This document shows, in pieces, positions 15,578-39,445 of a stretch of 64,000 bases of DNA. A model generated the notes under the pieces. It was not told the DNA's origin, searched no databases, and worked only from the letters and a program-made list of their open reading frames with translations. This DNA comes from an uncultured Gammaproteobacteria bacterium (GTDB lineage: Bacteria; Patescibacteriota; Microgenomatia; UBA8517). Location: the NCBI GenBank assembly GCA_964600575.1, contig CAZRJH010000004.1:6711-70710 (forward strand), written 5' to 3'. Within the stretch, counting starts at the first letter, position 1; each line of letters opens with the position of its first letter. The position numbers and the translations under genes were made by a program.

Positions 15578-15721
15578 TTACTTGCTTTTTATTGATTTCT
15601 TGAATTCGCGGATTGCGTCTCCGATACCTTTTCCAAGTTCGGGGAGTTTTTTGCCTCCAAAAAGAACAAGGAGGATAACAAAAATTATAATTAGTTCCGT
15701 TGTGCCTATATTTCTAAACAT
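15578..15721 (-). CDS. tatA: Twin-arginine translocase subunit TatA (47 aa)
   Basis: Translation [47 protein letters not shown]. Located immediately downstream of tatC. Confidence 0.75.
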
Positions 15722-17028: not shown

Positions 17029-17057
17029 GGGTCTAGATTTTAGGGGTTAGGGTTTAG
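17029..17057. repeat. Left inverted-repeat arm (GGGTCTAGATTTTA) plus GGGGTTAGGGTTTAG tract
   Basis: Pairs with 17443-17456 (TAAAATCTAGTCCC; 13 of 14 complementary). Contains telomere-like TTAGGG. Confidence 0.55.
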
Positions 17058-17402
17058 TTTGTGGAGTAAAACATTAAGCATTTTCATTATTTCCGTCAGT
17101 AATCCAAAGGCTTTATTAAATTCTGATTTATTTAATAGTCGCAGCTCGTTTGCAAGTAAAAGCTGGGTTTCCAGTTCTGCTCCGGCGCCATAGGCTATGC
17201 GTAGAAATTGAATATATTCTTGTTTATGACCACGGGAATTACCTTCTGCAATGTTTGACGGTATCGACACGGCGGCTCATTGCATTTGGGATGCTAATCC
17301 GTATATTTCTGATTTTGGAAAACTTCTGGTTATTTTGTAAGTGAGTTTGGTCAATTCGAATGATTTCTGCCAAACTATTAACTCTTTGTAGCTACTAATC
17401 AT
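17040..17402 (-). pseudogene. Four-helix-bundle protein of the '23S rRNA intervening-sequence protein' family, interrupted by an in-frame TGA at a conserved Arg codon
   Basis: The upstream frame reads MISSYKELIVWQKSFELTKLTYKITRSFPKSEIYGLASQMQ*AAVSIPSNIAEG.... The family consensus has ...SQ(I/L)RRAAVSIPSNIAEG, so this is CGA->TGA at 17277-17279. The downstream 76-aa ORF restarts at GTG. Confidence 0.7.
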
Positions 17403-17476: not shown

Positions 17477-18775
17477 CTAACGTAGGGATGCAATTGTTGC
17501 TTTGACTTTGGCGTCTTTGAGGTTTCTTCCTGCTGTTCCCGGGGTAACATGACCCGAGATAACTTCGTCCCAAACTGCATCCGCAATTGCGCTTGCGGAT
17601 TCGCCGCCTGCTTGTGTTTCTATGAATGTACCGGTACCTAAGTCTCGGGTGGGTGCTACAGTGTTTCCAGAGAATGTGTGATTAAGTCTAACGCCCGTTC
17701 TTGTTACACTGCTACCTACATCTATACCGTAGCCTGTATTGTTGAAAATAAGATTTGTTTCAAAAATATTATCCGAGACACCGGACCCGGAAAGGTCAAC
17801 CCCGTCGGCGCCGTTACCGGACAATATACACTGCCTCACATTTAACTTGGTTGTAGATGCACCTATTTTTATTCCGGTTCCCGCAGTGTCTTCTATGGCA
17901 CAGGTGTCTATTTGGGTTCTCGAAGAACTCGAGATGTCGATTCCGTTGCCTGTGGTGGATTTTACCCAACAATTTTTGATTAAACAGTTATCTCCGGTGA
18001 TTGTTATTCCGTTATCTGTGCCTCCCGCTGCAGTTTGTACATAAAAACCTTCGAACTCTACCGTATCTGCACTAATGTTTACTGTGGCCGCTCCGCTTGT
18101 TGTGGGCACAAGTTGGAATTGGTAACCTGCACCTCTAACTTTTAGACCGGCTTTTGTAATTGTAAGTTTTTCGGTGGTTGTTGTTATTCCTCCGCTTGCT
18201 GTTGCCAGTGCAAAAATAATATCACCAGCACCCGCTGTTGCCAGAGTTTGTGCTTGTGCAAAAGTTGCGACTGCTTTTGCGGGAGTCAGGCCGTCACTGG
18301 CGTCGGAGCCGCTTGTCGGGTTCCAATAGTAAATTGTTCCAACGCTTCTGCTTCTGCCCCTTAAACTTTCGAGCATAAAGAGTGTCGCATAATCGGAGTC
18401 TGCCTGAATAATAGACGGGGAAGTGGACTGGGCAATGTTTACTTGAGTAAAAGCGGTTGGTTTAATGGGGTTGTTTGAATATTGATTTACGGCAACCAAA
18501 TTTCCACCCGATACGGTACAAAGAATTGTATCGGGGCCGGACCTTGCCTCGAATGCTATTCTCCAATCGTTGATTAGCTCTAAAGTTATTCCGATGTAAG
18601 CTCCGCCTCCTAGTGATTGTTTACCGTAGGCGTTTGCAATGTGTCCGTAGTCCATGTTGGTTATTGTTGCTTCGTATACGCGTATTTGATTCACAAGGTC
18701 CTGGATTGTTACGGTTGTTTGGGGTGCGTCAACCTGAATAACTTTTTCGTATTTAAAAAATGTAAGATTTGCCAT
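17477..18775 (-). CDS. Right-handed beta-helix (pectin-lyase-fold) protein, phage tail-fibre/tailspike-like
   Basis: 432 aa with no signal peptide. It has repeated GNGIDISSSS, GTGIKIGAS, GADGVDLSGSG and GYGIDVGSS beta-helix rungs and an N-terminal about 110-aa domain. Confidence 0.55.
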   Translation of the reverse strand: MANLTFFKYEKVIQVDAPQTTVTIQDLVNQIRVYEATITNMDYGHIANAYGKQSLGGGAYIGITLELINDWRIAFEARSGPDTILCTVSGGNLVAVNQYSNNPIKPTAFTQVNIAQSTSPSIIQADSDYATLFMLESLRGRSRSVGTIYYWNPTSGSDASDGLTPAKAVATFAQAQTLATAGAGDIIFALATASGGITTTTEKLTITKAGLKVRGAGYQFQLVPTTSGAATVNISADTVEFEGFYVQTAAGGTDNGITITGDNCLIKNCWVKSTTGNGIDISSSSRTQIDTCAIEDTAGTGIKIGASTTKLNVRQCILSGNGADGVDLSGSGVSDNIFETNLIFNNTGYGIDVGSSVTRTGVRLNHTFSGNTVAPTRDLGTGTFIETQAGGESASAIADAVWDEVISGHVTPGTAGRNLKDAKVKATIASLR

Positions 18776-18780
18776 TTTGT

Positions 18781-19701
18781 TTAGTCTGCAAAAGCCGATA
18801 CTTTAACTGTCGGTATCAGATGTCCAAGTTCGTTTTTGTAGGAAATATCCGGATGTACCTTAAGAGCAAGAAAATCGGTGATGCCGATTTTATCTAGCAA
18901 AGATTCTCCCTTATCCATTTTAATTTCAGTTGAGTTTTCTTGTACAAAAGCTTGCTTACCTGCTTCATATCTAAAGTATATTCTTTCGATTATGGTTTGT
19001 TGCTTTAGCTTTTTTAAGTTAAAACCGGACATATTTATTACATTAACTTTAGACGATTGTGTGCCGTAGAAAGACAAAGGAATAAGGCCTTTGTCAAAAA
19101 GTGCTACAAAGTGTCCGATATGCTTGGCTATGGGGAGTGCAAATTCTTTTTGATCAATACTTGTTTGCGGGTTTTCTTTTAGATATTCCATAAGATGTCT
19201 GTTTATCAAATAAATTTGTCCGTTTTTATCTTGTGCAAAAAACACAAAGCTGTTGTTTAGTTGGAAAAGGGGAGTAAGTTTGTATCTACTAAAGATCCTA
19301 AGTGTTGGTGAATCGAGGTCGTTAACATTGATAGTTAAAAGGTTAGCATCGTTTACCAAAAAAGATTGTGTTTGGGGGTCGAATATCCTGAGTCCTATAT
19401 TTTTGGTTACATTTTTGAGGAGGTTTAGAGAAATACCGTCGTTCCAATCACAAGTCAAAGTGATGTGATTTGAGATACTGGTATCTGTTAAATCATGTTT
19501 AATATTAGTGTTTAGTGACGCTGTTAACGGGGTGCCTAGGTAAAAAATCGTTGCAAAATCGTCCCCCGATTTTTTTACCTCAATCTCTCCCGTAAAGGTA
19601 ATAAGGTAATCGATTATCTTTTGCAAGTTCTCTTTTGGGCTTACCTCCATTCTGTCCACCATAAGGTGGTACTTTACCTGTTTGTCTAAATTGTAGAGCA
19701 T
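18781..19701 (-). CDS. Hypothetical protein (306 aa)
   Basis: ORF co-directional and nearly abutting neighbours (5-nt gap). No motif recognised. Confidence 0.55.
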   Translation of the reverse strand: MLYNLDKQVKYHLMVDRMEVSPKENLQKIIDYLITFTGEIEVKKSGDDFATIFYLGTPLTASLNTNIKHDLTDTSISNHITLTCDWNDGISLNLLKNVTKNIGLRIFDPQTQSFLVNDANLLTINVNDLDSPTLRIFSRYKLTPLFQLNNSFVFFAQDKNGQIYLINRHLMEYLKENPQTSIDQKEFALPIAKHIGHFVALFDKGLIPLSFYGTQSSKVNVINMSGFNLKKLKQQTIIERIYFRYEAGKQAFVQENSTEIKMDKGESLLDKIGITDFLALKVHPDISYKNELGHLIPTVKVSAFAD

Positions 19702-20067
19702 TTAATTTAGGGTTCGTTTTAGTTTTTTGTAGTATCTGGCTTCTTTTATGTCAGCCTTTAGGGCGTTTATCATTCCCTGAACACGCTTTTTTTCGGTTAA
19801 TTCTTTAGCGATCGCCTCTTTAAATATTTGGATGTTGGCGTCGATTTTCTTTTTGTAGTTTACAAGGTCTTTGACCCCAAAACTTCTATCTATTATTACT
19901 TTATTCGGGTCGTAATTGGGACTAAAAATAATTTTACTTTTTCTTTCGCCGTCTTTTTTTGCAATAACCTTAGAAATATCTCCTTGGTTGGGTGGTGATT
20001 TTTTGCCTTTGGGGGATTTTGCTCCCGAAGAAACCCGGGAAGATTTATTTTTTTTACTTGTTGGCAT
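19702..20067 (-). CDS. Lysine-rich small basic protein (121 aa), hypothetical
   Basis: About 25% Lys or Arg. Its stop abuts the start of the next gene. Confidence 0.5.
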   Translation of the reverse strand: MPTSKKNKSSRVSSGAKSPKGKKSPPNQGDISKVIAKKDGERKSKIIFSPNYDPNKVIIDRSFGVKDLVNYKKKIDANIQIFKEAIAKELTEKKRVQGMINALKADIKEARYYKKLKRTLN

Positions 20068-20233
20068 CTATTATTGCAATTATCTGGTAAAGCCTTTGAA
20101 TTTCGCGTTCCTCTTGCATAATCTGATCCTGAAAAATTTTTAGATTTTTCTTTCTTCTTTCTACTTCTGCCACAACCGAGTCTTTGTCGTACCGCATAGC
20201 TTCTTCTTTGGTAACGGGTTTATAGGGGTCCAT
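20054..20233 (-). CDS. Small hypothetical protein (59 aa), translationally coupled to 19702..20067
   Basis: ATG-initiated ORF MDPYKPVTKEEAMRYDKDSVVAEVERRKKNLKIFQDQIMQEEREIQRLYQIIAIIDANK overlaps the downstream start by 14 nt. It is below the ORF-track cutoff. Confidence 0.3.
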   Translation of the reverse strand: MDPYKPVTKEEAMRYDKDSVVAEVERRKKNLKIFQDQIMQEEREIQRLYQIIAIIDANK

Positions 20234-20287
20234 AACAAGAACATATTAACATATGGGTAAAATATTCAAAAGAAGTTTACGGTGAAG

Positions 20288-20713
20288 TTATTTGAATCTG
20301 TCCCAAAATCCCTTTTTCTTTTCTTCGTCGATTTCTTCTTGGGTTTTTTTGCTTACAAATCTACCACCGGGGCCGCGTGTAACTCTGGTCTGGGGGGTAG
20401 ACGGATCTCCTTTTGATTCTTCCTGGGCCAGTTCTTCGGCGGCTTCTCCCGCATCCTCTACCTCTTTTTGGTACTCTTCTTTGTCTTGAAACAAATCGCG
20501 TTCCTCCGCTTTATCGATTTTTGCCAGTTTGTCCTTTTTTGCCTGAGCTAAATTTTTCTCAAGATTTGCCAAGTGGTTGTCTATAGCGCTCTTAAGCTTA
20601 TTTTCGGAAGATTCACGGAATATAACAACCTCGGCTCGGTTTCTGGCGATATAAATAATTTTATTGCCGTTAAGGGATTGGGATATGCTGTAACCTTTAT
20701 ATGTATTGGCCAT
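20288..20713 (-). CDS. Hypothetical acidic coiled-coil protein (141 aa)
   Basis: ORF 7 nt downstream of the giant gene. Confidence 0.5.
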   Translation of the reverse strand: MANTYKGYSISQSLNGNKIIYIARNRAEVVIFRESSENKLKSAIDNHLANLEKNLAQAKKDKLAKIDKAEERDLFQDKEEYQKEVEDAGEAAEELAQEESKGDPSTPQTRVTRGPGGRFVSKKTQEEIDEEKKKGFWDRFK

Positions 20714-20719
20714 CTAAGT

Positions 20720-23665
20720 TTAAGTAATGATTGTATCAGATGTTCTAACGATACTAACCGTCATACCTGTTGTGGTGACGGTTGAGTCTGATTCGTAAGG
20801 CAAAATAGGGGAGCTGCCTGCGGTTGATCTTCTGGCACGGACTCTAACAGGAATATCCGCACTGTAAGTAATAGTTGCCTGTTCCGTTCCGGGTGTACCG
20901 TCGGAACCGGTTATTTCATAAGAGTCTATCATTGGCACATACCAGGTGTCTTGCGGGGATGTTGTTGTAGCAACGGGGAGTACATTTAATTTTATATTGT
21001 CTGCCGTTGTTTGCGAGGCAATGGCGGGGGAGATTGTGACAGTGTTGTTGTCTGTGACAACCGTAATATAAGAAACTGCATTACCTCTGGTTACATTAAC
21101 TACCAAGTCGCCTACTTTAGAGCTTGCAAAAGCGCCGGTCTCTACGATTGTTGTGGTGTTTGTTCCTGAATCGGCAGATGCAATGTCGCTACTCGCAAGA
21201 GTAAATGTTGTTCCTGTCCAGCTCGAAAATCTTATACGGTACTCTGCATTTGCAGAGGTATCAACAAGTCTTATAACTCCACCCGCGTTTCTTCCAGGTT
21301 CGTCAACTGTTATAGAAGATCCCATTACGGCGGTTGTTGCCAAGGCGGATTGAACTGTGGCGTTGTATCTGTTTTTGATAATGTTTCCGCCCGAACCATC
21401 CAGTCTAAAGACGGCAATTTTATCGCCGCTTCTGGTGTTGCTTACGGTAATGGTAACTTTGGTAGGTGCAACCACCACATTGTTGTTGTCGTCTGTCAGC
21501 TGGAAGTTGTTAAGGTCTGAGCTAAGATAATCGGTAAGAACCAAACCCGGAGCACAGAAAAACTTTCCTCCTGCGAATGTACCCATGGGTGCGGCTGCTA
21601 CCGGTGTAATTGACGCAACGGGTGTGGCGCCGGTTATCGTTACATAGTTTGAACCGTCTACTTGAATGTTATTTACCTGGTTAAAAGTTCCCCTGGCGTT
21701 TCTAAGGATAAGAATTTTGTCCGTGGTGTTGTGGTTAACCACTGTTCCTGTAAATCCGGAAGAAACCTGTGTAACAGTTGCACCGTCTGCAATGGAACCT
21801 GTGATTGTATCGTAGATAATACGGGTGTCGTTTCCCAGGTAAAACTGCCCTTCAATGGTTTGTGAACCGGAATCAATGTCTGCAGTAGAACCCCGCCTGG
21901 TTACATACTTTGTCCACTGATAAACCTTGCCTAGGGAATTTTGATTACAGTCAAGAGTAATGGAGTAGTTTTCTGCGGTCCCGTTTTCGTCAATGTCGTT
22001 TGAGCCTCCCGTTGCTAGACCTCCAAATGTAAGAGTAGGGGGTGTGCCGCTTTCGAAGAAGGTTGTACCCGAAGTCGTTGCAGGCCCTGCATCTGCGGGA
22101 GTTCCTGCCGTACAAGTAGCATCACCATCTGCGGTTCCTGTGTATTCTACAATTGCGTCGGAATTTGCAAAGTCGGTGACAGGGTCTCCAATTAAATAGT
22201 AGGTGAGTACAGGAGATGCACCAGTGCCTCCCACGGCAGTAAGCTTGCCTCTCTTTGTTGCTGTTGCCCATGTGCCGCCAACATAAATATAGTTACCCGA
22301 GTTAAAAGTTCCGGATCCCGACGATCCAGTGAAGGATCTATATCCTGTTTGATTATCAAGGTCGTTACCCGTCTGCAAAGGAATAGGGTTACGTCCTCCC
22401 GAGGTTAAATCCACCGAGTAGTACGAATAAGTCTTGCTGTACTGGCGGGCGTAAACATAAATGTAGCCTTCGTCTGTTTCTGTACCCAACTCTTTAACAT
22501 TTACCAAAATATCTATGTGGTCGGTTGTAAGGCCTGTTGTTTGATCGCTCCACCAATCGGTTGTGCCTTTGTAAGCCACCATGTTCGCAGCGTTTTGCCT
22601 AATGTAAATGTGGGTGTAAGTTTCGATTGTACCGATGGAGTAGATGTTGGCCCAGAGTGATTCTCCGCCGGATACCGCTGCTGCGGATTGAGTGGCCGAT
22701 CCGATTCCGCCGATAAAACCCTGATCTAAAACGGGGTTGGTGGAATAAGTTCCCGCTACAAGTGCCCTGATATAAAACAAACTTTGCGATCCGTTTAAGG
22801 ATGTTGCAACCCAATCGCTTGGTACTGTAAAAGTTAGTACTTTGCCGTCGCCAACCGATGCGGTAAATCCGCTTGTTGCGTCCGAAACTCCGGACAAAGC
22901 CGTCCAGGAACCGTTCCAATACTGCCAGGTCACGCTTCCTCCCACTCCCGCTGTTCCGTTTGCGTAATCAAAAATAACTTTTTTGAATTTTTGTGTAAAA
23001 CCGATTGCACAATAATCGGAGGTATCCTCCGAAGCGGGGAAGACCTGCCAGTCAGCGTTACCCGCACTATTTGCATCGGTTGATTCGTCAACAAATGTTG
23101 TATTGTCCACCTGCCAAACTTGGCTCATAGTGGAGTTAGAAATTGCGATTGTCCCGCTCGTGGAATCCCAGTCGTTTCCTGACGCGCTGTCTGCCGGTCT
23201 TATCCAGGCAACCTTTGTGCCAAGAACAGTGTTAAAGTCTAAAAGTGTGCCGGAATCAAGTCCTGTGGCATTTGTAATTGTTCTACCAATATCTGTTGTA
23301 TCAAAATCAGTTCCACCTACGGTGTAGTTTATTTTTACAACACCAACATTTGTTCCTGTAACACGGTCCCAAGAAGCAGTTTTGAGAGCACCGCCCGTAA
23401 GATGTTCAACTGTGGTTCTGTCTATAAACCAGGGATCTTTATCTCCCGCATCGATAATTCCGATTGTGTACTCTGTAGGTGTCTGGGCGCTCATGGGAAC
23501 ACCGTCGTCCATCTGTCCGAGTTCGTCAAAGAGTTCTTGGAGAGCAGAGTAAAGTTGGTTAACAGTTCTTGTACCGGTAGAAGAACCGGTCCACTCAATT
23601 CTTTTCTGCCTGTTTTCGGCAGAATAATATACGGTAAAATCCCCGCTCAAGATTGTGTCAGACAT
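20720..23665 (-). CDS. Giant Gly/Thr/Ser-rich protein (981 aa), no signal peptide; tail-fibre/surface-like
   Basis: Uninterrupted 2.9 kb ORF. The N-terminal region is weakly similar to the N-terminus of 17477..18775. Confidence 0.65.
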   Translation of the reverse strand: MSDTILSGDFTVYYSAENRQKRIEWTGSSTGTRTVNQLYSALQELFDELGQMDDGVPMSAQTPTEYTIGIIDAGDKDPWFIDRTTVEHLTGGALKTASWDRVTGTNVGVVKINYTVGGTDFDTTDIGRTITNATGLDSGTLLDFNTVLGTKVAWIRPADSASGNDWDSTSGTIAISNSTMSQVWQVDNTTFVDESTDANSAGNADWQVFPASEDTSDYCAIGFTQKFKKVIFDYANGTAGVGGSVTWQYWNGSWTALSGVSDATSGFTASVGDGKVLTFTVPSDWVATSLNGSQSLFYIRALVAGTYSTNPVLDQGFIGGIGSATQSAAAVSGGESLWANIYSIGTIETYTHIYIRQNAANMVAYKGTTDWWSDQTTGLTTDHIDILVNVKELGTETDEGYIYVYARQYSKTYSYYSVDLTSGGRNPIPLQTGNDLDNQTGYRSFTGSSGSGTFNSGNYIYVGGTWATATKRGKLTAVGGTGASPVLTYYLIGDPVTDFANSDAIVEYTGTADGDATCTAGTPADAGPATTSGTTFFESGTPPTLTFGGLATGGSNDIDENGTAENYSITLDCNQNSLGKVYQWTKYVTRRGSTADIDSGSQTIEGQFYLGNDTRIIYDTITGSIADGATVTQVSSGFTGTVVNHNTTDKILILRNARGTFNQVNNIQVDGSNYVTITGATPVASITPVAAAPMGTFAGGKFFCAPGLVLTDYLSSDLNNFQLTDDNNNVVVAPTKVTITVSNTRSGDKIAVFRLDGSGGNIIKNRYNATVQSALATTAVMGSSITVDEPGRNAGGVIRLVDTSANAEYRIRFSSWTGTTFTLASSDIASADSGTNTTTIVETGAFASSKVGDLVVNVTRGNAVSYITVVTDNNTVTISPAIASQTTADNIKLNVLPVATTTSPQDTWYVPMIDSYEITGSDGTPGTEQATITYSADIPVRVRARRSTAGSSPILPYESDSTVTTTGMTVSIVRTSDTIIT

Positions 23666-23712
23666 AATACTTAGAACTTACCGCCTGTGTAGTGGCAGTG
23701 AAGTCTAAAATG

Positions 23713-23742
23713 AGTATAAGTAGGCCGTTCTTGGGGTGTCAA
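23713..23742 (-). promoter_or_regulatory. Sigma70-like promoter (TTGACA-18 nt-TATACT on the minus strand) upstream of the 981-aa gene, preceded by a tandem AATTGATATATTT direct repeat
   Basis: The reverse complement reads TTGACACCCCAAGAACGGCCTACTTATACT. The direct repeats lie at about 23763-23800. Confidence 0.35.
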
Positions 23743-23801
23743 TAGGGTTTATTTATTAACGCCGAAATTGATATATTTGAGTCGGAATTGATATATTTTT
23801 C

Positions 23802-26252
23802 TTAGGCAGTTGTGTCTTCTATTAGTGTTATAGTTGCAGAAAAACCCGAAGAAGAAATGGTTCCTGTTGTGGATGCTGGGTAATATTTTGTTGATCCGGT
23901 AGATGATTTTCTTACGCGTATATAAATATCGGTATCAGACGAATAGTTGAAGGTTGTTTTTGCTGTCCCGTTGGATGCTGTTCCGTTTCCCGAACCCACA
24001 CCTGTTGCTGTAAAAACTTCACCAACCGTATTACTTGCAGCACCAACTGCTGTAAAATCGGTCGTTCCAACACTAAGTATTATATATTTTGTTCCCACCA
24101 CAAAATTTCCTGCGGTTACCGTCTCTGTGTCCATGTTCATTAGTTGGGTATTGTCGCTAGACTTGTAAATTGCAGTTTGAGCATTTTCTACAGGGTAGTT
24201 TGTACTGTCTACAACGGTTACAGTGAGATAAACCGTATTATTAACTGTGGTTGATGCATTTGTACCGTTTCTGATTGTGGGGGTCGTGCCCCCATTCGTG
24301 ACATTAATTGTTACTAACCCTCCCGAATTGTTATAAACATCAGCAGTAGAACTGCCTTGGGCACCGCCTCCGCTAAAGTCTATATTGTCGAAAGTGTAGG
24401 TACCGGTTGCGGTGATTTCTATTGAATGTCCATTTGTATTATTTATGAAACTGCAATTAGATATCCTTTCCATTTCCGTCGTAGAGGTAACCGTCAAGGC
24501 TGTTGTTGAGTTACTGCTTACAATCGAACAGTTATCAAGGTATGTACCCGAAGCCAAAAAACCGTCGCAGTTCGACCAGACAATATCACTTAGATGAATG
24601 TCTGATACAAGTGTAACTGTTCCTGCACCTATTACAGTTAGTCCCGAAAAATCATATGTTGCAGAAGAGGACGAGCCTTCATTAAATCCCCAATGATATT
24701 TACTGGCACTGGAAACCAGAGAGTTCCTGTGTTTAATCGTATCGCCACTACCGGCGTAGTAGGTAATACCGGTGACATTATCAATAGAGTTGTAGGAAAC
24801 AAGTTTTGCATCGGCGTCATATTGTTTGGGGAATTCTAAAGCGGTGTCGTTAAAGTCCATATATAAAGGATTTGTTCCTCCGTCGCCAAATTGAACTGGC
24901 CCCAGAATTAAGGCCTGATTTGCGCCCTGCTGGATTATCGACCTTCTTTCGTGACCGTTGGATCCCGCCAACCTCATACCTGCTATGTTTAGCGGTTCGG
25001 AGGAATTACCGCCAGCTATGGTGACCGTATCCAGCATCCACAACGAATAAAAGTCCCAGATTGTAGTTGAAACACCAATTCCTGAAACCCAGAAACCAAA
25101 TGCTGCAATAGATGAAGGGTCTAGTGTTCCCGCAGTTGCTTTTGTATTTCCCGCAGCCTCGTTTATAACCAGAGGCAGGTCACGTGCGGTGTATTCCGGG
25201 CTGTCAACTCCTCTTACTTGCCAAATCTTATAATCGGTTGCAGAGCCTGATCTCATACCTGCCCAAATTCCCCGGCCTGACGCGATTCCTGAAAAGCGTT
25301 GGATTTGTCCTGCCGTACTTGGGCCGTTGTGAACTAAAATATTTTTGCCGGTAACATCTGGTTTGTTGCCCGTTGCAAGTACAAGCTCTGCACCGCTCAT
25401 GTTTTTTGTTGCCGAGGTGGTTGTAAGTCTACCAACAGAATGGAACGAATTTAAACCTACGTCAGCAGCAGCTGCGGTTGTAGCATCATCAGCAGTTTTT
25501 CCGCCAAGGCTTGTCCCAAAACCTGTATCGGCCGTTGCTGCAAGGGCAGTATCTCCGTTAAATGCAGTAACTCCATTAATTGGGTTTATATAAGTTGAGG
25601 AGTCAGCTGTACAATAAACGGGAATTACAGTTGCGCCCCCCGAAGGTGCTGCTATTTGAATAGTGGCGTCGACCCCTGTAACGCTTGCAGTGTTTGAACA
25701 GACCACATTTGACGGAGTTGTTCCGGATGTGGGTTGAAACCCCCAACCAACTCCGTCTGCGTGCGCCGATCCGTCGGCGCCATAAAGCAAAGTAACAGGA
25801 CCTTCTATCAATGAGGGTATAGATGCTGTGGTGTTCGATACTACATATAAAACCAAGGAATTATCTACTGTTGTAGAAATTGTTTGCATGCTGAATTTGT
25901 ATGATCCGGAATGGTTGTGGGTTGTATATGTTGGTGTGCTGCCGAATGGGTTTGTTGTATCGATATCCCTTACGGAAATAAGTGAGCAATTGAAAGTTTC
26001 AGAGCTTGTTCTAGTGAAGGTAGGGTCGGACTCACTTGAACCCGCAATCTTGTACATAACCGTTAGTTGAGTTGTGTTTGCAACGGAAAAAAGCTGAGTC
26101 CATCCGCTTGATGACCAGGTTCCTGTACCAGTATCGGCAGATAGGATTGCCAACAATAAATCATTTTGTACAAAATCAGGCATTGGTGGAGTAATGGTTG
26201 TTCCTGAAGTAGTGGTGGTATAGGTCCAAGACCAGTCTCTTATTGCAGGCAT
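23802..26252 (-). CDS. Giant Thr/Gly/Ser-rich protein (816 aa), paralogue of 28405..32118
   Basis: Shares the N-terminus MPA(I/L)RD(W/F)xW, the central ASGRG(I/F)W(A/F)GMRS motif and a conserved C-terminal domain of about 120 aa (...TETVTAGxFVxGxxYxIxxVGTTDFT...IYIRVRKSS...) with the 1237-aa protein. Confidence 0.7.
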   Translation of the reverse strand: MPAIRDWSWTYTTTTSGTTITPPMPDFVQNDLLLAILSADTGTGTWSSSGWTQLFSVANTTQLTVMYKIAGSSESDPTFTRTSSETFNCSLISVRDIDTTNPFGSTPTYTTHNHSGSYKFSMQTISTTVDNSLVLYVVSNTTASIPSLIEGPVTLLYGADGSAHADGVGWGFQPTSGTTPSNVVCSNTASVTGVDATIQIAAPSGGATVIPVYCTADSSTYINPINGVTAFNGDTALAATADTGFGTSLGGKTADDATTAAAADVGLNSFHSVGRLTTTSATKNMSGAELVLATGNKPDVTGKNILVHNGPSTAGQIQRFSGIASGRGIWAGMRSGSATDYKIWQVRGVDSPEYTARDLPLVINEAAGNTKATAGTLDPSSIAAFGFWVSGIGVSTTIWDFYSLWMLDTVTIAGGNSSEPLNIAGMRLAGSNGHERRSIIQQGANQALILGPVQFGDGGTNPLYMDFNDTALEFPKQYDADAKLVSYNSIDNVTGITYYAGSGDTIKHRNSLVSSASKYHWGFNEGSSSSATYDFSGLTVIGAGTVTLVSDIHLSDIVWSNCDGFLASGTYLDNCSIVSSNSTTALTVTSTTEMERISNCSFINNTNGHSIEITATGTYTFDNIDFSGGGAQGSSTADVYNNSGGLVTINVTNGGTTPTIRNGTNASTTVNNTVYLTVTVVDSTNYPVENAQTAIYKSSDNTQLMNMDTETVTAGNFVVGTKYIILSVGTTDFTAVGAASNTVGEVFTATGVGSGNGTASNGTAKTTFNYSSDTDIYIRVRKSSTGSTKYYPASTTGTISSSGFSATITLIEDTTA

Positions 26253-26283
26253 ATTAAAAAAATGATATCACAGCCGAAGTTTG

Positions 26284-26646
26284 TCAGGACTTAACGTTCT
26301 TAAGAGTTTTCTTAACCAAAGCATCTAAATCCAAATCGCTTTTAACAATGTAGTCAGTTGCACCTCTTGTACCACCTTCTTCTTCAGGTAGATTGCTTGC
26401 AACAATAACAGGGATATTTTTTACGCTTTCGTCATTCTTTACCTTTCTCAGAAACTCGTAGCCGTCTATACCGGGAAGTAGAATGTCTAATACTATTACA
26501 TCAGGGATCCATTTTTTAAGGTTTTCTAGACCTTCTTCTGCAGTTCTAAATGATCTCACAACGAAGCCGGCTTCCTCAAATTTATATCTCATAGCTTTAC
26601 TTATAAACTTGTCGTCTTCGATAACCATTACTTTTGGTTTTTTCAT
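26284..26646 (-). CDS. Response regulator, stand-alone receiver (CheY-like) domain
   Basis: 120 aa with acidic pocket residues (IEDD..., VLDILLPGIDG) and a conserved Lys. Confidence 0.85.
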   Translation of the reverse strand: MKKPKVMVIEDDKFISKAMRYKFEEAGFVVRSFRTAEEGLENLKKWIPDVIVLDILLPGIDGYEFLRKVKNDESVKNIPVIVASNLPEEEGGTRGATDYIVKSDLDLDALVKKTLKNVKS

Positions 26647-26649
26647 TTT

Positions 26650-28278
26650 TTAAATATTACCATTCGGTTGGGGTATTGTGAAATAAATTTTTGTTCCCGA
26701 CCGTGCAGAAGCTAATCTGATATTACCCCCATGGGCTTCTACAATTAGTTTAGCAAGATATAATCCAAGCCCGGCCCCTTCTGTATCTTTTAATTTTGCA
26801 TTGGAAGCTCGGGAGAATTTTTGAAATAAAGTTTCCAATTCATTTTTAGGTATCCCTATACCCGTGTCCGATATAGAGACAACAATCTCTTTCTTGTTTC
26901 CGTCAATCTTAACCAGAACTTTGCCTCCTGGATGATTGTATTTAAATGCGTTGTCGATCAAATTGAGGAATACCTGACTAATCAATTTTTCATCAATATT
27001 TATTTTATTTGGAACGTTCTTGGATGTTTTTATGGTCAAGTGAATTTTTTTGTTTTTATAGACTTTTCTGACATCACGAGAAGAGTTTTTTATTAAATTG
27101 TGAATACTTGTCGGTTTGGGGTCTATTAATATTCTTTTTGACTCCAGTTTGGAAACACTTAATATTGTTGATATAAGTTCTATCATTCGTTTGGCGGATA
27201 GGTGGGTGTCTTTTACTATTTTTTCCTGTTTTGAGGTTAGGCTCCCCGGAGATTTGGATAAAAGTATTTCACTAAACCATTTTATTGCAGTAACAGGAGT
27301 TCTTATTTGGTGTGATGCTAATGATATAAAATCACGCTTCAAACTTTCGAGTTCTTTAATCTTTTCTATTGACTTAGCAATTAAAGAATTGCCTAATTTC
27401 ACACCTGCATATATTGAGACAAGTGTTGCAATAAGAAGGAAAAGTAGAGTTTTTCTAAAGTTGACAATTGGAGTAGCAAACACCTCGGATTCGGTTTTTC
27501 CAGCCAAGACAAAAATCTCATTTTCACCGTCTCCGGCTTGTTCATAAGCATAAATTCTATTTATTCCGTCTATTCCTTTTGTCTCAAAAATTCCTTCCGA
27601 GTCATTTTGAAAATAGTCGTTAATAGGAAAGATTTGCCCGATCCAATTTTCTATACTGGGATTTCTTGCCAGGATCACCCCTTTTCTGTCTAGAACAAGT
27701 ATTGTTACGTCTTTGTCTAATTCTAGGTTAGATATAAACTTACCTAGCCAATCCAGGTTCAAGGTTGCGTAAACTACTCCGCCGTTTGTCAAGGGATATC
27801 CAAAATTTAAACTAGCCAAGTTGGTAGATCTACTTACAACGTACTCACCGACAGTAAAACTGTTTGTTTTTTTAGTTTGAATATAAAAATATCTGTCAGA
27901 TAAATTTTGCGGCTCTCTAAGTTGGACACCTGAACAGATAACATTACCGGTCTTGTCAGTAACTCCAAAATTGCCGTATCTTTGGTAACTACCTAGCACT
28001 TCGGAAATATAAATTGAACACTCACGGCCGCCTAGGTTTATCTTTTGAGTTGCAGAAAGCGCGATCAATAGTTGCCTTGCACCTTCCGTAATTTGCTTGT
28101 TTTCGAGGGCAACCAAGGTGGCGATATTTCTTAGTTCTGTTACTTTTGCCTGCTTTTCTTGATCTAGTTGGGACCTGTTTACCAGATACGCTAAGACTAC
28201 AAAAGGAACTAGTGTAAATGCGGTTAGGAGCAAAATCTTTATACGTATATTAGAAATGTTGAGTTTTTCGGAGAACAT
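26650..28278 (-). CDS. Sensor histidine kinase with extracytoplasmic Cache-like sensor domain
   Basis: Two TM helices flank a domain of about 250 aa. H-box SHQIRTPV, N-box LIDNAFKY, G1 DTGIGI and G2 GAGLGL. Confidence 0.85.
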   Translation of the reverse strand: MFSEKLNISNIRIKILLLTAFTLVPFVVLAYLVNRSQLDQEKQAKVTELRNIATLVALENKQITEGARQLLIALSATQKINLGGRECSIYISEVLGSYQRYGNFGVTDKTGNVICSGVQLREPQNLSDRYFYIQTKKTNSFTVGEYVVSRSTNLASLNFGYPLTNGGVVYATLNLDWLGKFISNLELDKDVTILVLDRKGVILARNPSIENWIGQIFPINDYFQNDSEGIFETKGIDGINRIYAYEQAGDGENEIFVLAGKTESEVFATPIVNFRKTLLFLLIATLVSIYAGVKLGNSLIAKSIEKIKELESLKRDFISLASHQIRTPVTAIKWFSEILLSKSPGSLTSKQEKIVKDTHLSAKRMIELISTILSVSKLESKRILIDPKPTSIHNLIKNSSRDVRKVYKNKKIHLTIKTSKNVPNKINIDEKLISQVFLNLIDNAFKYNHPGGKVLVKIDGNKKEIVVSISDTGIGIPKNELETLFQKFSRASNAKLKDTEGAGLGLYLAKLIVEAHGGNIRLASARSGTKIYFTIPQPNGNI

Positions 28279-28404
28279 TAATTTATAGCTATAGTATCCA
28301 AAGTTAGACTAGCGGTCAAACTCGGCGATAACCGACAATCTCTGTAAGACGATAACTTTACGCCGAGAAAGATATGTTTATAGTATTGATCTTAGGAGAA
28401 ATCT

Positions 28405-31400
28405 TTAGGCGTTAGTGTCTTGGGTCATGGATACAGTTACGCTAAACCCGGACGATGTAACAGTGCCTGTTGTGGATGAAGGGATATATTTGGTGGCCCC
28501 TGCGGATGATTTTCTGACACGTATATAAATAGGTGTGTCGGCGGTGTAGTTGAATGATTCCACAGCAATTCCGTTTGTTGCCGTTCCCGTTCCAGAACCG
28601 ACACCTGTTGCAGTGAACACCACCCCTATGGTGTTAGATGATGCTCCAATGAGTGTAAAGTCTGTAGTTCCGACAGTAACTATTCTGTAGTTTACCCCTG
28701 CGACAAAACTTCCCGCGGTTACTGTTTCCGTATCTTCGTTCATTAGCTGCGTGTCATCACTGGTTTTATATATAGCAACTTGTGCTAGCTCGATAGGGCC
28801 GTTGTCTGCTTTGTCTAGTACGGTAACGGTGAGGTTTACTGCATTGTTAACAGTTGTCGATGAGCCGTCGGAATTTCTTATACTTGGCGTAGAGCCATTT
28901 ACGACATTTATAGTTACTGAGCCGCCTGAATTGTTATAAATTGCAGCTGCGGCGGAATAAATGTACTGCGTACCCGAACCGGCAACCGTAATGTCGGCCC
29001 TTCCCGTTGCCCCGCCTGCAATTGCGTGGTCTGAGGTGTCGTAAAGTGTAATAGTTGTAGAAGATTCACTTCTTACATAATAAAGATTGCCGTCGGTTAA
29101 CCCTGTTGGTGCTGTTCCACCTTGGTCCTGGAAGTAAGCGGGTTCACCATTGCTGTAACCGTGAGATGCATCTAGTGTTATTACATCCGTAGTTGTATTT
29201 ACCCCTGAGGCAGCATTAAAACTTCTAGCTGCAGGGCCGTAATTTGTAAAAGTGTTTCCGGTTATTGTCACGGTACCTGTAGATGTCAGTCTTAAAGCAT
29301 GGCCGGAGGTGTGTGATCCTGTAAAGGTATTATTAGAAAACATATCAAGGTCGGCCGTGGCTACCGAGGCCCATCTGTTGCCGGCGGTAACTGTAGTTGT
29401 TGTGATGCTACTTTCGGAGATGACAGTGCTCGAAGTTGTAGTTACCGAGTCGTTGGTTGCAGGCATATTTTTAATTGTTCCGCCGGTAAAAGTCAGGCCG
29501 CTTATATCAAGTGTTGAGTAGTCATTGATTGTGAGATCCGTTATTGTGATCGCCTTATTCAAAGTAACGGTTCCGGCACCAATTACCTGCAGTCCGGAAA
29601 AGTCATATGTGGCAGTGGTGGAGGCACTTGTATGAAGCCCCCATTTGTATCTGGAAGGGGAGGAAACTACGGAGTTTTTGTGGATTATTGTATCGCTAGA
29701 ACCCGGGTAATAGGTGATACCTATTACATTGTCGGTTGAATTGTAATTAATCTTTTTAGTGCTTTCGTTGTATTGGCTGGGTAGCTCTATGGCTGTTGAG
29801 TCCAAATTCAGATAAACAGGGTTCGTGCCGCCGTCACCAATTTGTAAATCTTGCAACAGAAGCATCTGTTTGGCTCCTTGCAAAATTGCGCTCATTCTTT
29901 CTTTTCCGTTGGCAATTACTTTAATAATACCCTCGATGCCCATGGGTTCTGCGGAATTTCCCCCTGAAATTACTGTTGAATCCATTACCCATAACGAACC
30001 CACACCCATTTGCACCGTATTTGTTCCTGTAATTCCTCCCACCCAAAATCCAAAAGCGGTGATAGCGGAAGTGGTCAAAGATCCCGCACTATCAACCGTA
30101 TTCCCTGCGCCCGAGTTGATAATAATAGGCACATGAGCGCCAGATCCCCACGGTGCATCAACCGCGTGAACCCTCCATATTTTATGGTCACTGGTTCCTG
30201 TTGTATTGGATCTCATTCCAAACCAAAATCCGCGACCCGACGCAATATTGGTAAAACGCTGCAAGTTGGCGGGGGTGGAGGCACGTACGTGGCAAAGTAT
30301 ATTTTTTGTACCCACATTTGGCCTGTTGGCAACCGCAAGAACAAGCTCAGCACCGCTGATTTGGTTTGTTGTCGTTGCATTGGTCATACCTCCCATGGAG
30401 TGGAAGGTATTAATTCCCACGTCTGCAATTGCGGCGGCTGTCGCATCATTGGCAGTGGTTCCCGAGAAAGGCCCTGTGCCAAAGTTTGTATCCGCTGTTG
30501 CCGCAAGCGCGGTGTTTGTATTAAAAGCAGTGACTCCATGGATCGGATCCACATACGAACAGTTGTCGGTGGTTATATATGCAGGTATTACCGTTGCGCC
30601 CGTGAGCGGTGGTTGAACGGCAATTGTGGACTGGCCGCCGTTACCTGATGCATAAGAATCACAAACAACATTGTTTGCGGTTGTGCCTGCAGTTTTCAGG
30701 AAACCCCATCCTGCACCCATGGATTCTGCTGATCCGTCTGCTCCAAATATGTAATTAACAGGTCCTTCCAAAAAAGTTGGTGCTGCGGCTGATGCAGAAG
30801 AAAGACGATAGAGAATAAGTGAGTTGTCCCTGTCGGTGGTTGTTGTTCCCATTGTAAACCTGGCAGCACCTGTTGCAGCAGCTTCGTTGTAGTTGAATCT
30901 GTATACATAAAAACATGAATCGGTTCCTGAAACTGCGGACCAAGAACCGTTATATGTAGACAAATTTCCCGCATGCCCTGGGGAGGATGTATCCACACCG
31001 ACATTTACAAAATTGCTGCCGTCTCCACCTGAATATTCAAGTGTTACAACATAATCAACCGCCGCCATAGTGAACCACCAACTGGGGAAATAAAAATCAG
31101 TTAGAGCAAGTGAGCCCGTTAGGGTTGAAGCGTCTACGGGGTTGGAAACTGCCAAAGCGGATCCTGTTGGGGTAGATGATGTTCCAAGTGTTCCTGTTTC
31201 CAGGTAAAGTTTTGCCACAATATTGCCAGTTGGGGATCCGGTTTTACTTAAATAAAAAGTAGTTTTAGAAAGTACAGTTGCCGTTCCCGTAAAAGATTGT
31301 CCCACGCCTGTTATGGTTCCATTTCCAAGAGCCTGGGTAGCATTTTGATTTGATTCCGAATAGCTGGAAACGGAAACGGACGGAAAAGGCGAGGAGGTGT

Positions 31401-32118
31401 CTATGTCGCGAACGGATATTACGCTGCCGTTGTATGTTTCGTTTGTTGCGGTAACTACCGTGACATCATCTTCTAGACTTGTTGCAAGTTTGAAAAAGGT
31501 AATATTGGCAGTTGTGTTATTTCTTGTAAAAAGAGTCTTCCAATCACGGACCCAGGCTTGTGTACCAAGCGGGCGGGTTGTTAGAGACGTAAACGAAATA
31601 ACTCTGGAACGCACCCAATAGGCTGTTATTGAATTTATTGATGTGGTAGCCCAGTCTGTTGGTACCGTAAAGGTTACATCCCTGTTTCCTGTGCCTGCCG
31701 TAAAGTTTGTTGTTCCGTCTGAAAGTCCTGGCAAAGTTGCCCAGGTACTACCGTTATAGTATTCCCATTCTATATCCCAAGTTGCAGAGCCGTTTGTTCC
31801 GATATTTATTCTCAATAATTCAAATTTATTGAGACATCCATAGTAATAGGCATCGTTTACTGCAGGTGCAGCGGGAACTAATTCCATGTCATTCGCAGTT
31901 GTAGAATTTGCGTCGGTTGTGTCGGTCGCCATTGCACCTCCGTCGTCTGATACTGCAGCATAAAGTGCAGACAGAAGTGTCCATGTGGGGGTTCCCGTAT
32001 CTGCCATGGCGTAGCCAACCAGCAAATCTCCCGAAGCATAACCACACATGGGGATTGTAACTCCCGCATCGGCAGTAGAAGATTCAAAGGCCCAAGCAAA
32101 ATCTCTTAAAGCTGGCAT
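28405..32118 (-). CDS. Giant Thr/Gly/Ser-rich protein (1237 aa), paralogue of 23802..26252
   Basis: Same N-terminal, central and C-terminal signatures as the 816-aa protein, with a large extra central region. Confidence 0.7.
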   Translation of the reverse strand: MPALRDFAWAFESSTADAGVTIPMCGYASGDLLVGYAMADTGTPTWTLLSALYAAVSDDGGAMATDTTDANSTTANDMELVPAAPAVNDAYYYGCLNKFELLRINIGTNGSATWDIEWEYYNGSTWATLPGLSDGTTNFTAGTGNRDVTFTVPTDWATTSINSITAYWVRSRVISFTSLTTRPLGTQAWVRDWKTLFTRNNTTANITFFKLATSLEDDVTVVTATNETYNGSVISVRDIDTSSPFPSVSVSSYSESNQNATQALGNGTITGVGQSFTGTATVLSKTTFYLSKTGSPTGNIVAKLYLETGTLGTSSTPTGSALAVSNPVDASTLTGSLALTDFYFPSWWFTMAAVDYVVTLEYSGGDGSNFVNVGVDTSSPGHAGNLSTYNGSWSAVSGTDSCFYVYRFNYNEAAATGAARFTMGTTTTDRDNSLILYRLSSASAAAPTFLEGPVNYIFGADGSAESMGAGWGFLKTAGTTANNVVCDSYASGNGGQSTIAVQPPLTGATVIPAYITTDNCSYVDPIHGVTAFNTNTALAATADTNFGTGPFSGTTANDATAAAIADVGINTFHSMGGMTNATTTNQISGAELVLAVANRPNVGTKNILCHVRASTPANLQRFTNIASGRGFWFGMRSNTTGTSDHKIWRVHAVDAPWGSGAHVPIIINSGAGNTVDSAGSLTTSAITAFGFWVGGITGTNTVQMGVGSLWVMDSTVISGGNSAEPMGIEGIIKVIANGKERMSAILQGAKQMLLLQDLQIGDGGTNPVYLNLDSTAIELPSQYNESTKKINYNSTDNVIGITYYPGSSDTIIHKNSVVSSPSRYKWGLHTSASTTATYDFSGLQVIGAGTVTLNKAITITDLTINDYSTLDISGLTFTGGTIKNMPATNDSVTTTSSTVISESSITTTTVTAGNRWASVATADLDMFSNNTFTGSHTSGHALRLTSTGTVTITGNTFTNYGPAARSFNAASGVNTTTDVITLDASHGYSNGEPAYFQDQGGTAPTGLTDGNLYYVRSESSTTITLYDTSDHAIAGGATGRADITVAGSGTQYIYSAAAAIYNNSGGSVTINVVNGSTPSIRNSDGSSTTVNNAVNLTVTVLDKADNGPIELAQVAIYKTSDDTQLMNEDTETVTAGSFVAGVNYRIVTVGTTDFTLIGASSNTIGVVFTATGVGSGTGTATNGIAVESFNYTADTPIYIRVRKSSAGATKYIPSSTTGTVTSSGFSVTVSMTQDTNA

Positions 32119-32192: not shown

Positions 32193-33323
32193 ATGAACAA
32201 TATTAATGGTAAACTTGTTCCCAACTATTTGCCGTTTGTTCCAAAAGAATCGATAGAATTGGTTACAAAAACTCTCAAAAGCGGATGGATAGGTGGGGAC
32301 GGACCGAGAGTTAAGGAATTCGAAACAAAAATCGGCAAGGTAATCAAAAATCCGAACGTTGCTGCGGTTAATAGTGCCACATCCGGGCTTGAACTTGCTC
32401 TCAAAATGGCGGGGGTAAGCGGTGGAGAAGTGATTTCTACCCCAATGACCTGTTTTGCCACCAATGCAGCAATTGTTAACCAGGGGGCGACTCCTGTGTG
32501 GGTAGATGTAGACCCGGAAAGCGGAAACATAGATTTTGCCAAAATCGAGGCTAAAATAACCAAAAAAACACGGGCAATTATGGTTGTAGACTGGGGAGGG
32601 ACCCCGCCGGAACTCGACGGAATTAATAAAATAGCTAGGAAACATAAATTACCCATAATAGAAGATTCTGCCCAATCTTTAGGCTCTTTTTATAAAAGAA
32701 AAATGATAGGAAATCATGCCGACTATGTAGTTTTTTCTACCCAGGCCATAAAAATAATTACCACGGGGGATGGTGGTATGGTAGCTCTCGGGTCAAAAGA
32801 GGGGCTTTCTAGGGCAAAACGCTTAAGATGGTATGGGATTGATCGGGAAAAACGCAAATACGGGCCTCTTTTTTGGAGCTATCCAATTACAGAAGTCGGC
32901 GGAAAACTGCAAATGAACGACATTTTAGCCTCGGTTGGATTAGGACAACTGCCTAAACTTAAAAGCTTGCTTGCTCACCACAGACGGATTGCAGTTATCT
33001 ACAACAAGGCCCTTTCTGCCCAAACCAAGCTCAAACCCCAAAAAATTCCTGCGGGTGCAACTCCAAACTACTGGATTTATACTGTTCTTTGTGGGAGTGT
33101 CAAAAACCGCAATAAACTCCAAAAAGAGCTTTTAAAAATAGGTGTAAAAAGTGAACAGGCCCATAGACGTAACGACTTGTATCCGGTTTTTAAAAAATAC
33201 CAAAACGGCGCTCTGCCCGGTGTTGCTAAATTCGACAAGGAACATTTGATTATTCCGATCGGATATTGGGTTAACTTGGAAACCGCTAAAAAAATTGCTA
33301 AAGTCCTATCGGAATTTAAATGA
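32193..33323 (+). CDS. DegT/DnrJ/EryC1/StrS-family PLP-dependent sugar aminotransferase
   Basis: 376 aa with fold-type I aminotransferase architecture, including ...DGPRVKEFE..., IIEDSAQSLGS and a conserved Lys region. Confidence 0.8.
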   Translation: MNNINGKLVPNYLPFVPKESIELVTKTLKSGWIGGDGPRVKEFETKIGKVIKNPNVAAVNSATSGLELALKMAGVSGGEVISTPMTCFATNAAIVNQGATPVWVDVDPESGNIDFAKIEAKITKKTRAIMVVDWGGTPPELDGINKIARKHKLPIIEDSAQSLGSFYKRKMIGNHADYVVFSTQAIKIITTGDGGMVALGSKEGLSRAKRLRWYGIDREKRKYGPLFWSYPITEVGGKLQMNDILASVGLGQLPKLKSLLAHHRRIAVIYNKALSAQTKLKPQKIPAGATPNYWIYTVLCGSVKNRNKLQKELLKIGVKSEQAHRRNDLYPVFKKYQNGALPGVAKFDKEHLIIPIGYWVNLETAKKIAKVLSEFK

Positions 33324-38990: not shown

Positions 38991-38991
38991 T

Positions 38992-39432: not shown

Positions 39433-39445
39433 CAACTTACTAAAT

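Follow-up and report, generated by a model that had tools for sequence, protein, structure and literature searches.

A tat-linked cluster of beta-helix proteins without signal peptides in Microgenomates, a candidate captured phage fibre/spike cassette

We analyzed a 64-kb stretch of DNA (64,000 nucleotides in full, referred to below as the window) from contig CAZRJH010000004.1 of an uncultured Microgenomatia bacterium (assembly GCA_964600575.1), in which a block of minus-strand genes at 17477 to 32118 encodes several very large proteins. An earlier note on this DNA had described the block as nine co-directional genes for tail-fibre-like and giant proteins without signal peptides. All nine open reading frames (ORFs) were found where the note had placed them, but a further one, encoding 59 aa, had been missed, and the block contains ten ORFs, all of which are intact. 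Nor does the co-directional run end at 17477, as had been stated. It extends past this point through a four-helix-bundle gene, tatA, tatA, tatC, tatA and prsW to 15187, and the tatA-tatA-tatC-tatA-prsW genes are co-directional with the cluster and lie immediately downstream of it. The genes and features of the locus are as follows.

28405..32118, (-): 1237-aa variable beta-helix protein, a paralogue of the 816-aa protein by BLASTP, with extra inserted domains
26650..28278, (-): sensor histidine kinase, 542 aa (Pfam, NCBIfam, hydropathy)
26284..26646, (-): single-domain CheY-like response regulator, 120 aa (Pfam Response_reg, E=2.5e-18), without an output domain
23802..26252, (-): 816-aa variable right-handed beta-helix protein, tailspike- or polysaccharide-lyase/epimerase-like
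23713..23742, (-): sigma-70-like promoter match, TTGACA-18-TATACT, 11 of 12, in the gap between the 816-aa and 981-aa genes
20720..23665, (-): 981-aa conserved all-beta platform protein
20288..20713, (-): small protein of 141 aa, with tblastn matches in cellular loci only
20054..20233, (-): 59-aa conserved ORF, aligned by eye from end to end with an ORF of 61 aa in the corresponding place of locus L022
19702..20067, (-): 121-aa basic protein, its C-terminal ~85 aa conserved among cellular loci
18781..19701, (-): 306-aa protein specific to cellular clusters
17477..18775, (-): 432-aa conserved spike (Pfam Beta_helix/NosD)
17040..17402, (-): four-helix-bundle gene (23S rRNA intervening sequence (IVS)/bAvd-like) with one in-frame stop
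16764-16973, (-): tatA (Pfam and ORFs)
16559-16726, (-): tatA (Pfam and ORFs)
15727-16512, (-): tatC (Pfam and ORFs)
15578-15721, (-): third tatA, 47 aa, which falls below ordinary ORF cut-offs
15187-15576, (-): prsW-like gene (Pfam and ORFs)
12640..15183, (+): 847-aa protein with a signal peptide/transmembrane (TM) segment and a C-terminal SH3_3 domain, convergent with the cluster and adjoining it in 21 of 32 cellular loci

The 432-aa protein, already taken for a beta-helix protein in the earlier note, matched the Pfam family Beta_helix (PF13229) with E=3e-13 over residues 253-371. It is composed of an N-terminal anchor domain of ~125 aa in common with phage proteins, the beta-helix and a conserved C-terminal stretch of ~35 aa. 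Its homologues number 367; among the 120 listed, identities range from 58 to 84% and most lengths from 428 to 445 aa. PDB sequence and profile searches with this protein returned weak beta-helix matches only. A right-handed beta-helix was predicted for the 816-aa protein (predicted local distance difference test, pLDDT, 87.8; predicted template-modelling score, pTM, 0.82), and its top structural matches were the AlgG epimerase, tailspikes 2 and 4 (TSP2/TSP4) of phage CBA120, Klebsiella and Acinetobacter phage depolymerases and PL6 lyases. The N-terminus and the C-terminal ~215 aa of this protein are conserved. Relative to it, the 1237-aa paralogue carries inserts at residues ~48-185, resembling an insert of the 981-aa protein, and at ~265-410; it has 113 homologues, none carrying a Pfam name, and the C-terminus of its orthologue in L022 is 85% identical. 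The 432-, 816- and 1237-aa proteins are all right-handed beta-helix proteins resembling tailspikes or polysaccharide lyases.

The model of the 981-aa protein, built from an 84-sequence alignment (pLDDT 83.5), is almost all-beta and multidomain. Residues ~185-320 form a clade-specific inserted domain that is missing in versions of ~810 aa. Its best structural neighbours are a chain of the tail complex of phage LME-1 and, at the level of domains, baseplate wedge proteins of injection systems. Among predicted viral structures, the confident matches comprised domains of ~160-175 residues in unnamed proteins and loose matches to proteins named "baseplate wedge subunit"; no T7-type nozzle or fibre was named among the top 50 viral fold matches, many of which are unnamed. 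The predicted structures thus agree with the earlier suggestion of proteins like phage fibres and tailspikes. The last ~55 residues are similar among the 816-, 1237- and 981-aa proteins (BLASTP). A profile-profile comparison of the 432, 981 and 816 families for a shared docking domain showed only weak beta-helix similarity.

Searches against named families returned little for the cluster. The 981-, 816-, 1237- and 306-aa proteins gave nothing useful against PDB sequences and profiles, and the first three matched no family in Pfam, NCBIfam or PDB sequences, S-layer and adhesin families included. The earlier note had named such families, with cleavable signals, as the result that would speak against it; neither they nor the signals were found. 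PHROGs, NCBIfam and PADLOC yielded nothing for the large or small proteins, PADLOC giving generic kinase/receiver matches only. The 141-aa protein had no family match, and the 306-aa protein had no PDB or family match.

As the earlier note had remarked, the three giants of 981, 816 and 1237 aa are rich in Gly (10.3-10.5%), Thr (15.0-15.4%) and Ser (9.4-11.9%); their isoelectric points (pI) are 4.3-4.6. It had also mentioned small basic and acidic proteins; the 121-aa protein is basic (pI 10.2, 21.5% Lys), and the 141-aa protein has a pI of 6.0 and contains an acidic stretch. The guanine-plus-cytosine (GC) content is raised in the block, and the increase sits at codon position 2 and not at position 3; GC at position 3 (GC3) is 0.36-0.42, similar to that of the neighbouring genes and therefore host-like. 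Recent horizontal transfer, which the GC rise suggested, was ruled out, because a rise at codon position 2 reflects amino-acid composition.

The four large proteins (432, 981, 816 and 1237 aa) lack both a hydrophobic N-terminal segment and a twin-arginine (RR) motif, which bears out the earlier statement that they carry no Sec or Tat signal. This was judged by a hydropathy check rather than by SignalP: the maximum 12-residue Kyte-Doolittle score within the first 60 residues was at most 1.43 in these proteins, compared with 2.43 for the TM segment of the kinase and 2.53 for the signal peptide of the neighbouring SH3 protein. The listed ORFs are already maximal, and therefore no upstream extension can supply a signal. 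The N-terminus of the 816-aa protein lies in a confidently predicted beta-strand of its AlphaFold2 model. A twin-arginine signal with a hydrophobic region was absent from every cluster protein. The sole Tat-like signal among window ORFs of at least 80 aa was found in a 475-aa ORF at 58661-60088 (+), which starts MFFKMSRRNIFIFFITIFVLALNV and is a candidate ordinary Tat substrate.

Neither the block nor the scanned flanks contained a capsid, portal, terminase or integrase gene in Pfam and PHROG scans, which covered the block and the flanking genes examined (about 43.4-64 kb of the window lies outside these scans). BLAST with three sets of head-gene queries found no match anywhere in the 64-kb window. 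The scanned flanks hold ordinary chromosomal genes, namely those for Rho, an M23/LysM peptidase, tRNA-Ala and sensor proteins. The locus is thus not an intact prophage, as had been concluded before.

Homologues of the cluster occur almost only in Microgenomates bins, including Levy-, Woese-, Roizman-, Beckwith- and Daviesbacteria and WWE3. The same cluster with tat, prsW and SH3 neighbours was found across these lineages, also in the complete genome CP011210.1. The whole block, kinase and receiver included, recurs in two Levybacteria-type genomes, one of which keeps the upstream neighbours DegT, GNAT and GT41. The common order is an 816-type gene (with or without a histidine kinase/response regulator (HK/RR) pair), the 981-like gene, small ORFs, the 306-aa gene, the 432-aa gene, tatA, tatA, tatC, tatA, prsW and the convergent SH3 protein, and it holds for a distant genome of 841 kb as well as for Woese-, Roizman- and Beckwithbacteria and WWE3. 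Counts were made on the 32 cellular loci with at least 5 kb of downstream sequence. TatC was encoded within 10 kb in 27 of these and a 432-like gene was present in 28, while none had a capsid gene; three of the five loci without TatC come from bins labelled as unrelated taxa, which may be phage contigs. TatC was found in none of 79 viral loci from our second scan and in none of the 14 mapped viral loci from the first. Many third-party-annotation (TPA) assemblies titled "uncultured Gammaproteobacteria" or "Pseudomonadales" (L023-L063) carry the Microgenomates-type cluster and neighbours. Because their gene content matches that of named Microgenomates bins, these titles look like placeholder taxonomy and were treated as such. 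Five loci (L030, L040, L050, L052 and L054) have a tandem second 981-like copy, much diverged from the first in the same genome. Three tatA paralogues flank a single tatC in the window and four tatA genes are found in L020 (15504-19662), which is unusual for such small genomes.

Selection was estimated by comparing the window with L022, the closest genome. Synonymous sites are saturated, and the ratios of nonsynonymous to synonymous substitution rates (dN/dS) given here are therefore approximate.

981-aa protein: amino-acid identity 93%, dN/dS 0.031
432-aa protein: amino-acid identity 93%, dN/dS 0.027
tatC: amino-acid identity 81%, dN/dS 0.067
SH3 protein: amino-acid identity 66-67%, dN/dS 0.082
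Histidine kinase: amino-acid identity 47%, dN/dS 0.147

The 981- and 432-aa proteins are thus under tighter purifying selection than tatC. Across phyla, the 432-aa protein is 56-75% identical, compared with 38-53% for tatC. In contrast, L022 has no orthologue of the 816-aa gene and encodes two other paralogues that are 32-34% identical. Positions 1-9741 of L022 hold three 816-type paralogues together with two HK/RR pairs, of which one is inverted, so that "beta-helix gene + kinase + receiver" looks duplicated and replaced as a cassette. Conservation of the 981- and 432-aa proteins and turnover of the 816-type and HK/RR genes therefore describe an almost frozen core with a fast-changing periphery. 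Because the 432-aa spike is nearly invariant across the whole group, its target is suggested to be conserved and lineage-wide rather than host-specific; an envelope glycan of the producer itself and a universal polymer are both candidates. For the variable paralogues, targets that differ between strains would be fitting.

The embedded histidine kinase and CheY-like receiver described earlier were both recognized by Pfam. The 542-aa kinase has an N-terminal TM segment, an extracellular dCache_1 domain, HisKA and HATPase_c, and with the adjacent stand-alone receiver it makes up a two-component pair; such a pair is embedded likewise in L001, L020, L022, L035 and L048. The 141-, 121- and 306-aa genes were found in cellular loci only. 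Counterparts of the 306-aa protein, 34-73% identical, are present in L020, L022, L034-L039 and L049 and in none of the 79 viral loci. In one IMG/VR contig (L110, 3160-5397), a hybrid histidine kinase/receiver gene (phrog_5982, E=1e-73) lies directly upstream of the cassette; the kinase association may predate capture, or the contig may be cellular.

Outside Microgenomates, relatives were found in uncultured phages. A single-protein query identified full-length relatives of the 981 family in 13 IMG/VR contigs, and a second scan with an alignment query gave 79 loci, in which most of the first 13 were found again, making ~80 distinct contigs overall. Their gene order is that of the window: an 816-type C-terminus, a 981-like protein and the N-terminal ~125 residues of the 432 type. 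The 432-type N-terminus is present in 65 of the 79 viral loci, mostly matching only over the N-terminal ~75-190 residues. The closest viral homologues are 44-56% identical and have a GC content of 0.33-0.44; the viral loci as a whole span 0.30-0.67 and the cellular loci sampled 0.36-0.52. No homologue of the 981-aa protein was found in 50,697 phage records by tblastn with the window protein and two high-GC viral homologues, and the 1237-aa protein gave a marginal 72-residue match only in the same records.

The cassette lies beside at least three unrelated sets of head genes in viral contigs. L018 and its relatives encode a major capsid protein (phrog_2522, E=3e-78) with 53% identity to its counterpart in Bacillus phage G, L095 has TerL and portal genes beside the cassette, and L119 has genes for TerL (2.8e-165), portal (1.8e-107), protease-capsid (8.7e-188) and head decoration (1.6e-23). 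The head-gene BLAST queries matched in 19 of 93 viral loci and in no cellular locus. In L119, the cassette sits between the capsid/decoration genes and those for head closure, tail terminator and tape measure, and since the latter come after the cassette, this phage is long-tailed. We had also considered a "head-less podovirus tail", in which the three proteins would make up a whole short tail, with the 981-aa protein as its T7-type nozzle. This was dropped because of these L119 genes and because no T7-type nozzle or fibre was named among the viral fold matches mentioned above. Three viral contigs of 349-452 kb (L008, L017 and L019) with the phage-G-type capsid (53% identity) may be huge phages; a GIY-YIG/NUMOD3 homing endonuclease gene is located at 15217-15951 of L019. 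Diverged 981-like genes without tat neighbours were seen in L059, L060, L064 and L065, whose bin labels are Desulfarculales, Woesearchaeota, Nitrososphaerota and Bacteroidales; these are probably phage contigs placed into those bins.

Trees were built by neighbour joining (NJ) with midpoint rooting, which is weak at this depth. When few viral sequences were included, they formed a clade that fell among cellular clades linked to Tat. Once their number was raised to 65, viral clades were interleaved with at least five such cellular clades, and the idea that the phage copies form one clade nested inside the cellular ones did not survive this wider sampling. The window falls into the main cellular clade, whose sister group is the viral clade with the phage-G-type capsid. 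We take the interleaving to mean that the chromosomal locus and phage cassettes have undergone repeated exchange. The wide spread of the cassette in phages, in both GC content and head type, favours a phage origin, although the trees are too crude to settle it.

Taking these results together, we lean, by a small preponderance of probability, towards the view that the block is a phage fibre/spike cassette that was captured, is owned by the cell, still recombines and is kept at one chromosomal position in Microgenomates. The cluster is a candidate device for binding or cutting surface sugars. In the working model, the captured cassette would have lost all head and packaging genes and acquired four small genes specific to cells (141, 59, 121 and 306 aa), additional beta-helix paralogues and dCache kinase/receiver pairs. 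The proteins would be made without signal peptides and would fold and oligomerise in the cytoplasm, the 981-aa protein serving as a trunk on which the beta-helix spikes would dock via their conserved termini. The beta-helix domains would bind or cut polysaccharide, the 432-aa spike acting on a target common to the lineage and the 816/1237 paralogues addressing variable glycans on the surfaces of partner, competitor or own cells. The kinase would sense an external ligand, and the single-domain receiver would tune production or deployment. For export, a Tat-connected route is the lead candidate in view of the conserved tat linkage, even though no twin-arginine signal is present. This model of platform, spikes, kinase and possible Tat route is built on the analogies with branched tailspikes and with the mosaic adhesive trimer (MAT) proteins of Bdellovibrio and on the conserved gene order. 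In a more specific version, which we regard as unlikely, the captured cassette would form a Microgenomates cell-contact organelle, with the signal-less, already folded proteins leaving by a dedicated route tied to the adjacent multi-copy tatA/tatC genes, and with alleles swapped with the fibre cassettes of environmental phages.

Several points weigh against capture and the model built on it. The members of the cluster are known here from sequence and predicted structures alone, and assembly into one complex is argued only from gene order and the branched-tailspike analogy. A beta-helix is no less characteristic of the ordinary polysaccharide lyases and epimerases of bacteria. The interleaving of cellular and viral sequences in the NJ tree leaves the direction of transfer unsettled. 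"Tail fibre" may also be the wrong label: because the L119 cassette lies between capsid and connector genes, its products could belong to the head, the neck or the tail fibre of the virion. Finally, the tat linkage may be regulatory or historical, because the cluster proteins have no RR signal and an ordinary Tat-type signal occurs elsewhere in the window (58661-60088).

The opposite direction of transfer, in which native envelope or glycan-processing machinery of Microgenomates was repeatedly copied by phages, seems rather improbable to us. The tree with few viruses, with its viral clade nested in Tat-linked cellular clades, the interleaved 65-virus tree, the extreme conservation and synteny of the cellular copies, and beta-helix proteins that match bacterial epimerases and lyases as well as tailspikes all fit such a history. 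However, the GC range and the at least three unrelated head-gene sets of the viral loci are far broader than the range of the cellular loci, all the large proteins resemble virion proteins in having no signal peptide, the 981-aa protein has its best structural neighbours among phage tail and injection-system baseplate proteins, and the trees in question are midpoint-rooted NJ trees that are weak at this depth. The cluster could instead be the fibre locus of a particle-forming element, such as one resembling a gene transfer agent (GTA) or a tailocin, or a split prophage, with the other genes elsewhere and the kinase/receiver controlling induction. Structural proteins without signal peptides, the embedded two-component genes and the combination of variable receptor-binding paralogues with a conserved core, as in tailocin fibre loci, speak for it, and in the gene transfer agent RcGTA the fibre and head-spike genes are likewise in separate loci under a phosphorelay. 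We nevertheless consider it distinctly unlikely, since BLAST detected no head, connector, tube, sheath or tape-measure gene within 10 kb in ~48 cellular loci or in the 64-kb window, profile scans of the block and the examined flanks were also without such genes, no lysis cassette was recognized, and genomes of the candidate phyla radiation (CPR) are small.

An anti-phage role was considered as well, in which copies of receptor-binding or depolymerase proteins made by the cell would trim or mask its own surface receptor or poison phage assembly. The closest viral homologues, given their identity and GC content, plausibly come from Microgenomates phages, the interleaved cellular and viral alleles suggest ongoing exchange, 816-type paralogues turn over fast, and sugar-modifying genes (DegT, GNAT and GT41) adjoin the cluster in several genomes. 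On the other hand, no PADLOC family matches the large proteins, the phage contigs carry no host assignment, and the 981- and 432-aa proteins hardly vary between phylum-level lineages, whereas an arms race would leave the reverse pattern; on balance we give this role little chance. The earlier note had left open either a domesticated cluster or a remnant of a phage host-recognition module. The missing head, packaging and integrase genes and the in-frame stop in the adjacent four-helix-bundle gene are compatible with a decaying prophage remnant without present function. This is contradicted by ten intact ORFs, by a dN/dS of ~0.03 (with synonymous sites saturated), by the presence of the same locus in dozens of species-level genomes across phylum-level lineages and by host-like GC3, and we find it scarcely credible. 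The synteny, dN/dS and GC3 support the other half of that suggestion, a domesticated cluster. What the note had overlooked is the close, conserved linkage to tatA, tatC and prsW, the relationship of the 816- and 1237-aa proteins as paralogues, the beta-helix nature of the giants and the family of cassettes in uncultured phages.

Other features of the locus and its surroundings are less directly connected with the captured cassette. Promoter-like sites across the region are not above chance in total; the best match, at 23713..23742, is a lead only. The four-helix-bundle gene at 17040..17402 has its in-frame stop where the intact 130-aa homologue in L022 has Arg; either the gene became a pseudogene recently or the stop is a sequencing error. 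Its Avd-like character suggested a diversity-generating retroelement, which was ruled out, as no reverse transcriptase was found and repeats were short and at chance level. Antisense ORFs of up to 212 aa within the 1237-aa gene (29252-30648, +) are by-products of biased composition and not genes. Upstream, genes for a DegT aminotransferase, GNAT and a TPR-GT41 glycosyltransferase adjoin the cluster (32193-35581), as they do in L001, L027, L029, L030, L039 and L050. Because these genes are often neighbours and the giants are Ser/Thr/Asn-rich, there are hints that the giant proteins could themselves be glycosylated as their substrates. A run of sensor genes (37509-43399, +) encodes Cache, CHASE4, PAS and a MASE6 histidine kinase, and together with the embedded kinase it makes a signalling-rich neighbourhood for a reduced genome. 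A second GC-rich stretch (0.47), at 3000-6000, contains two minus-strand ORFs (3940-4752 and 4875-5771) with no Pfam match and no relative in any fetched locus.

Among known systems, the fibres formed by MAT proteins in Bdellovibrio bacteriovorus are similar in that a cell living on other cells encodes proteins of ~1000 aa related to phage fibres and tailspikes, with one conserved end and variable glycan-binding parts (PMC10769870). MAT proteins are displayed to recognise glycans on the target-cell surface; they have a signal peptide followed by their own conserved N-terminal domain of ~130 aa, and many end in an S74 chaperone-protease (PMC10769870). Unlike these, the cluster proteins have no signal peptide and no Peptidase_S74 match in Pfam, and whereas MAT genes are dispersed, the genes described here form one fixed cluster with a platform protein beside tat. 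A single domain of the 981-aa protein matches the structure of "orf18" of Legionella phage LME-1 (PDB 9efk chain M; PMC12407071), with no match at the sequence level; the paper on this tail lists portal, adaptor, nozzle and fibre and does not state which of them is orf18 (PMC12407071). In branched tailspike assemblies of the CBA120 type (TSP1-4), several beta-helix spikes with conserved anchors and otherwise variable chains are also encoded side by side. Those are virion parts of isolated phages, whereas the present genes are chromosomal and head-less; the docking domains are unrelated at the profile level, and the 981-aa protein shows no sequence similarity to these assemblies.

Tailocins (R- and F-type pyocins) and the injection systems PVC, Afp and AlgoCIS are likewise structures of phage origin that cells have retained; they too combine a conserved core with diversifying fibres and lack signal peptides. 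They differ in that the block and its scanned flanks have no sheath, tube, tape-measure, spike or lysis genes, only the fibre/spike cassette having been kept. The accessory loci for head spikes and tail fibres of RcGTA are controlled by CckA-ChpT-CtrA, and its fibre genes are separate from the head genes. Compared with such GTA loci, no head/tail cluster is known for Microgenomates and none was found here, and the receiver in the block has no DNA-binding domain.

To our knowledge, Microgenomates, a large uncultured CPR group, lack cultured members, no machinery for host contact is known from them, and we found no published description of the cluster in the open-access literature. Its occurrence in nearly all genomes sampled provides concrete protein candidates for cell contact, recognition or feeding in Microgenomates, and the analysis also defines the fibre/spike cassette of ~80 uncultured-phage contigs. 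The linkage of beta-helix proteins without signal peptides to several tatA genes and tatC raises the question of non-canonical export. Tailocins, injection systems, gene transfer agents and MAT fibres are already known as phage-derived structures kept by cells; the cluster differs from them as a cassette of fibres and spikes only, at a fixed position across a whole superphylum-level lineage, signal-less and tat-linked, with a large family of counterparts in uncultured phages.

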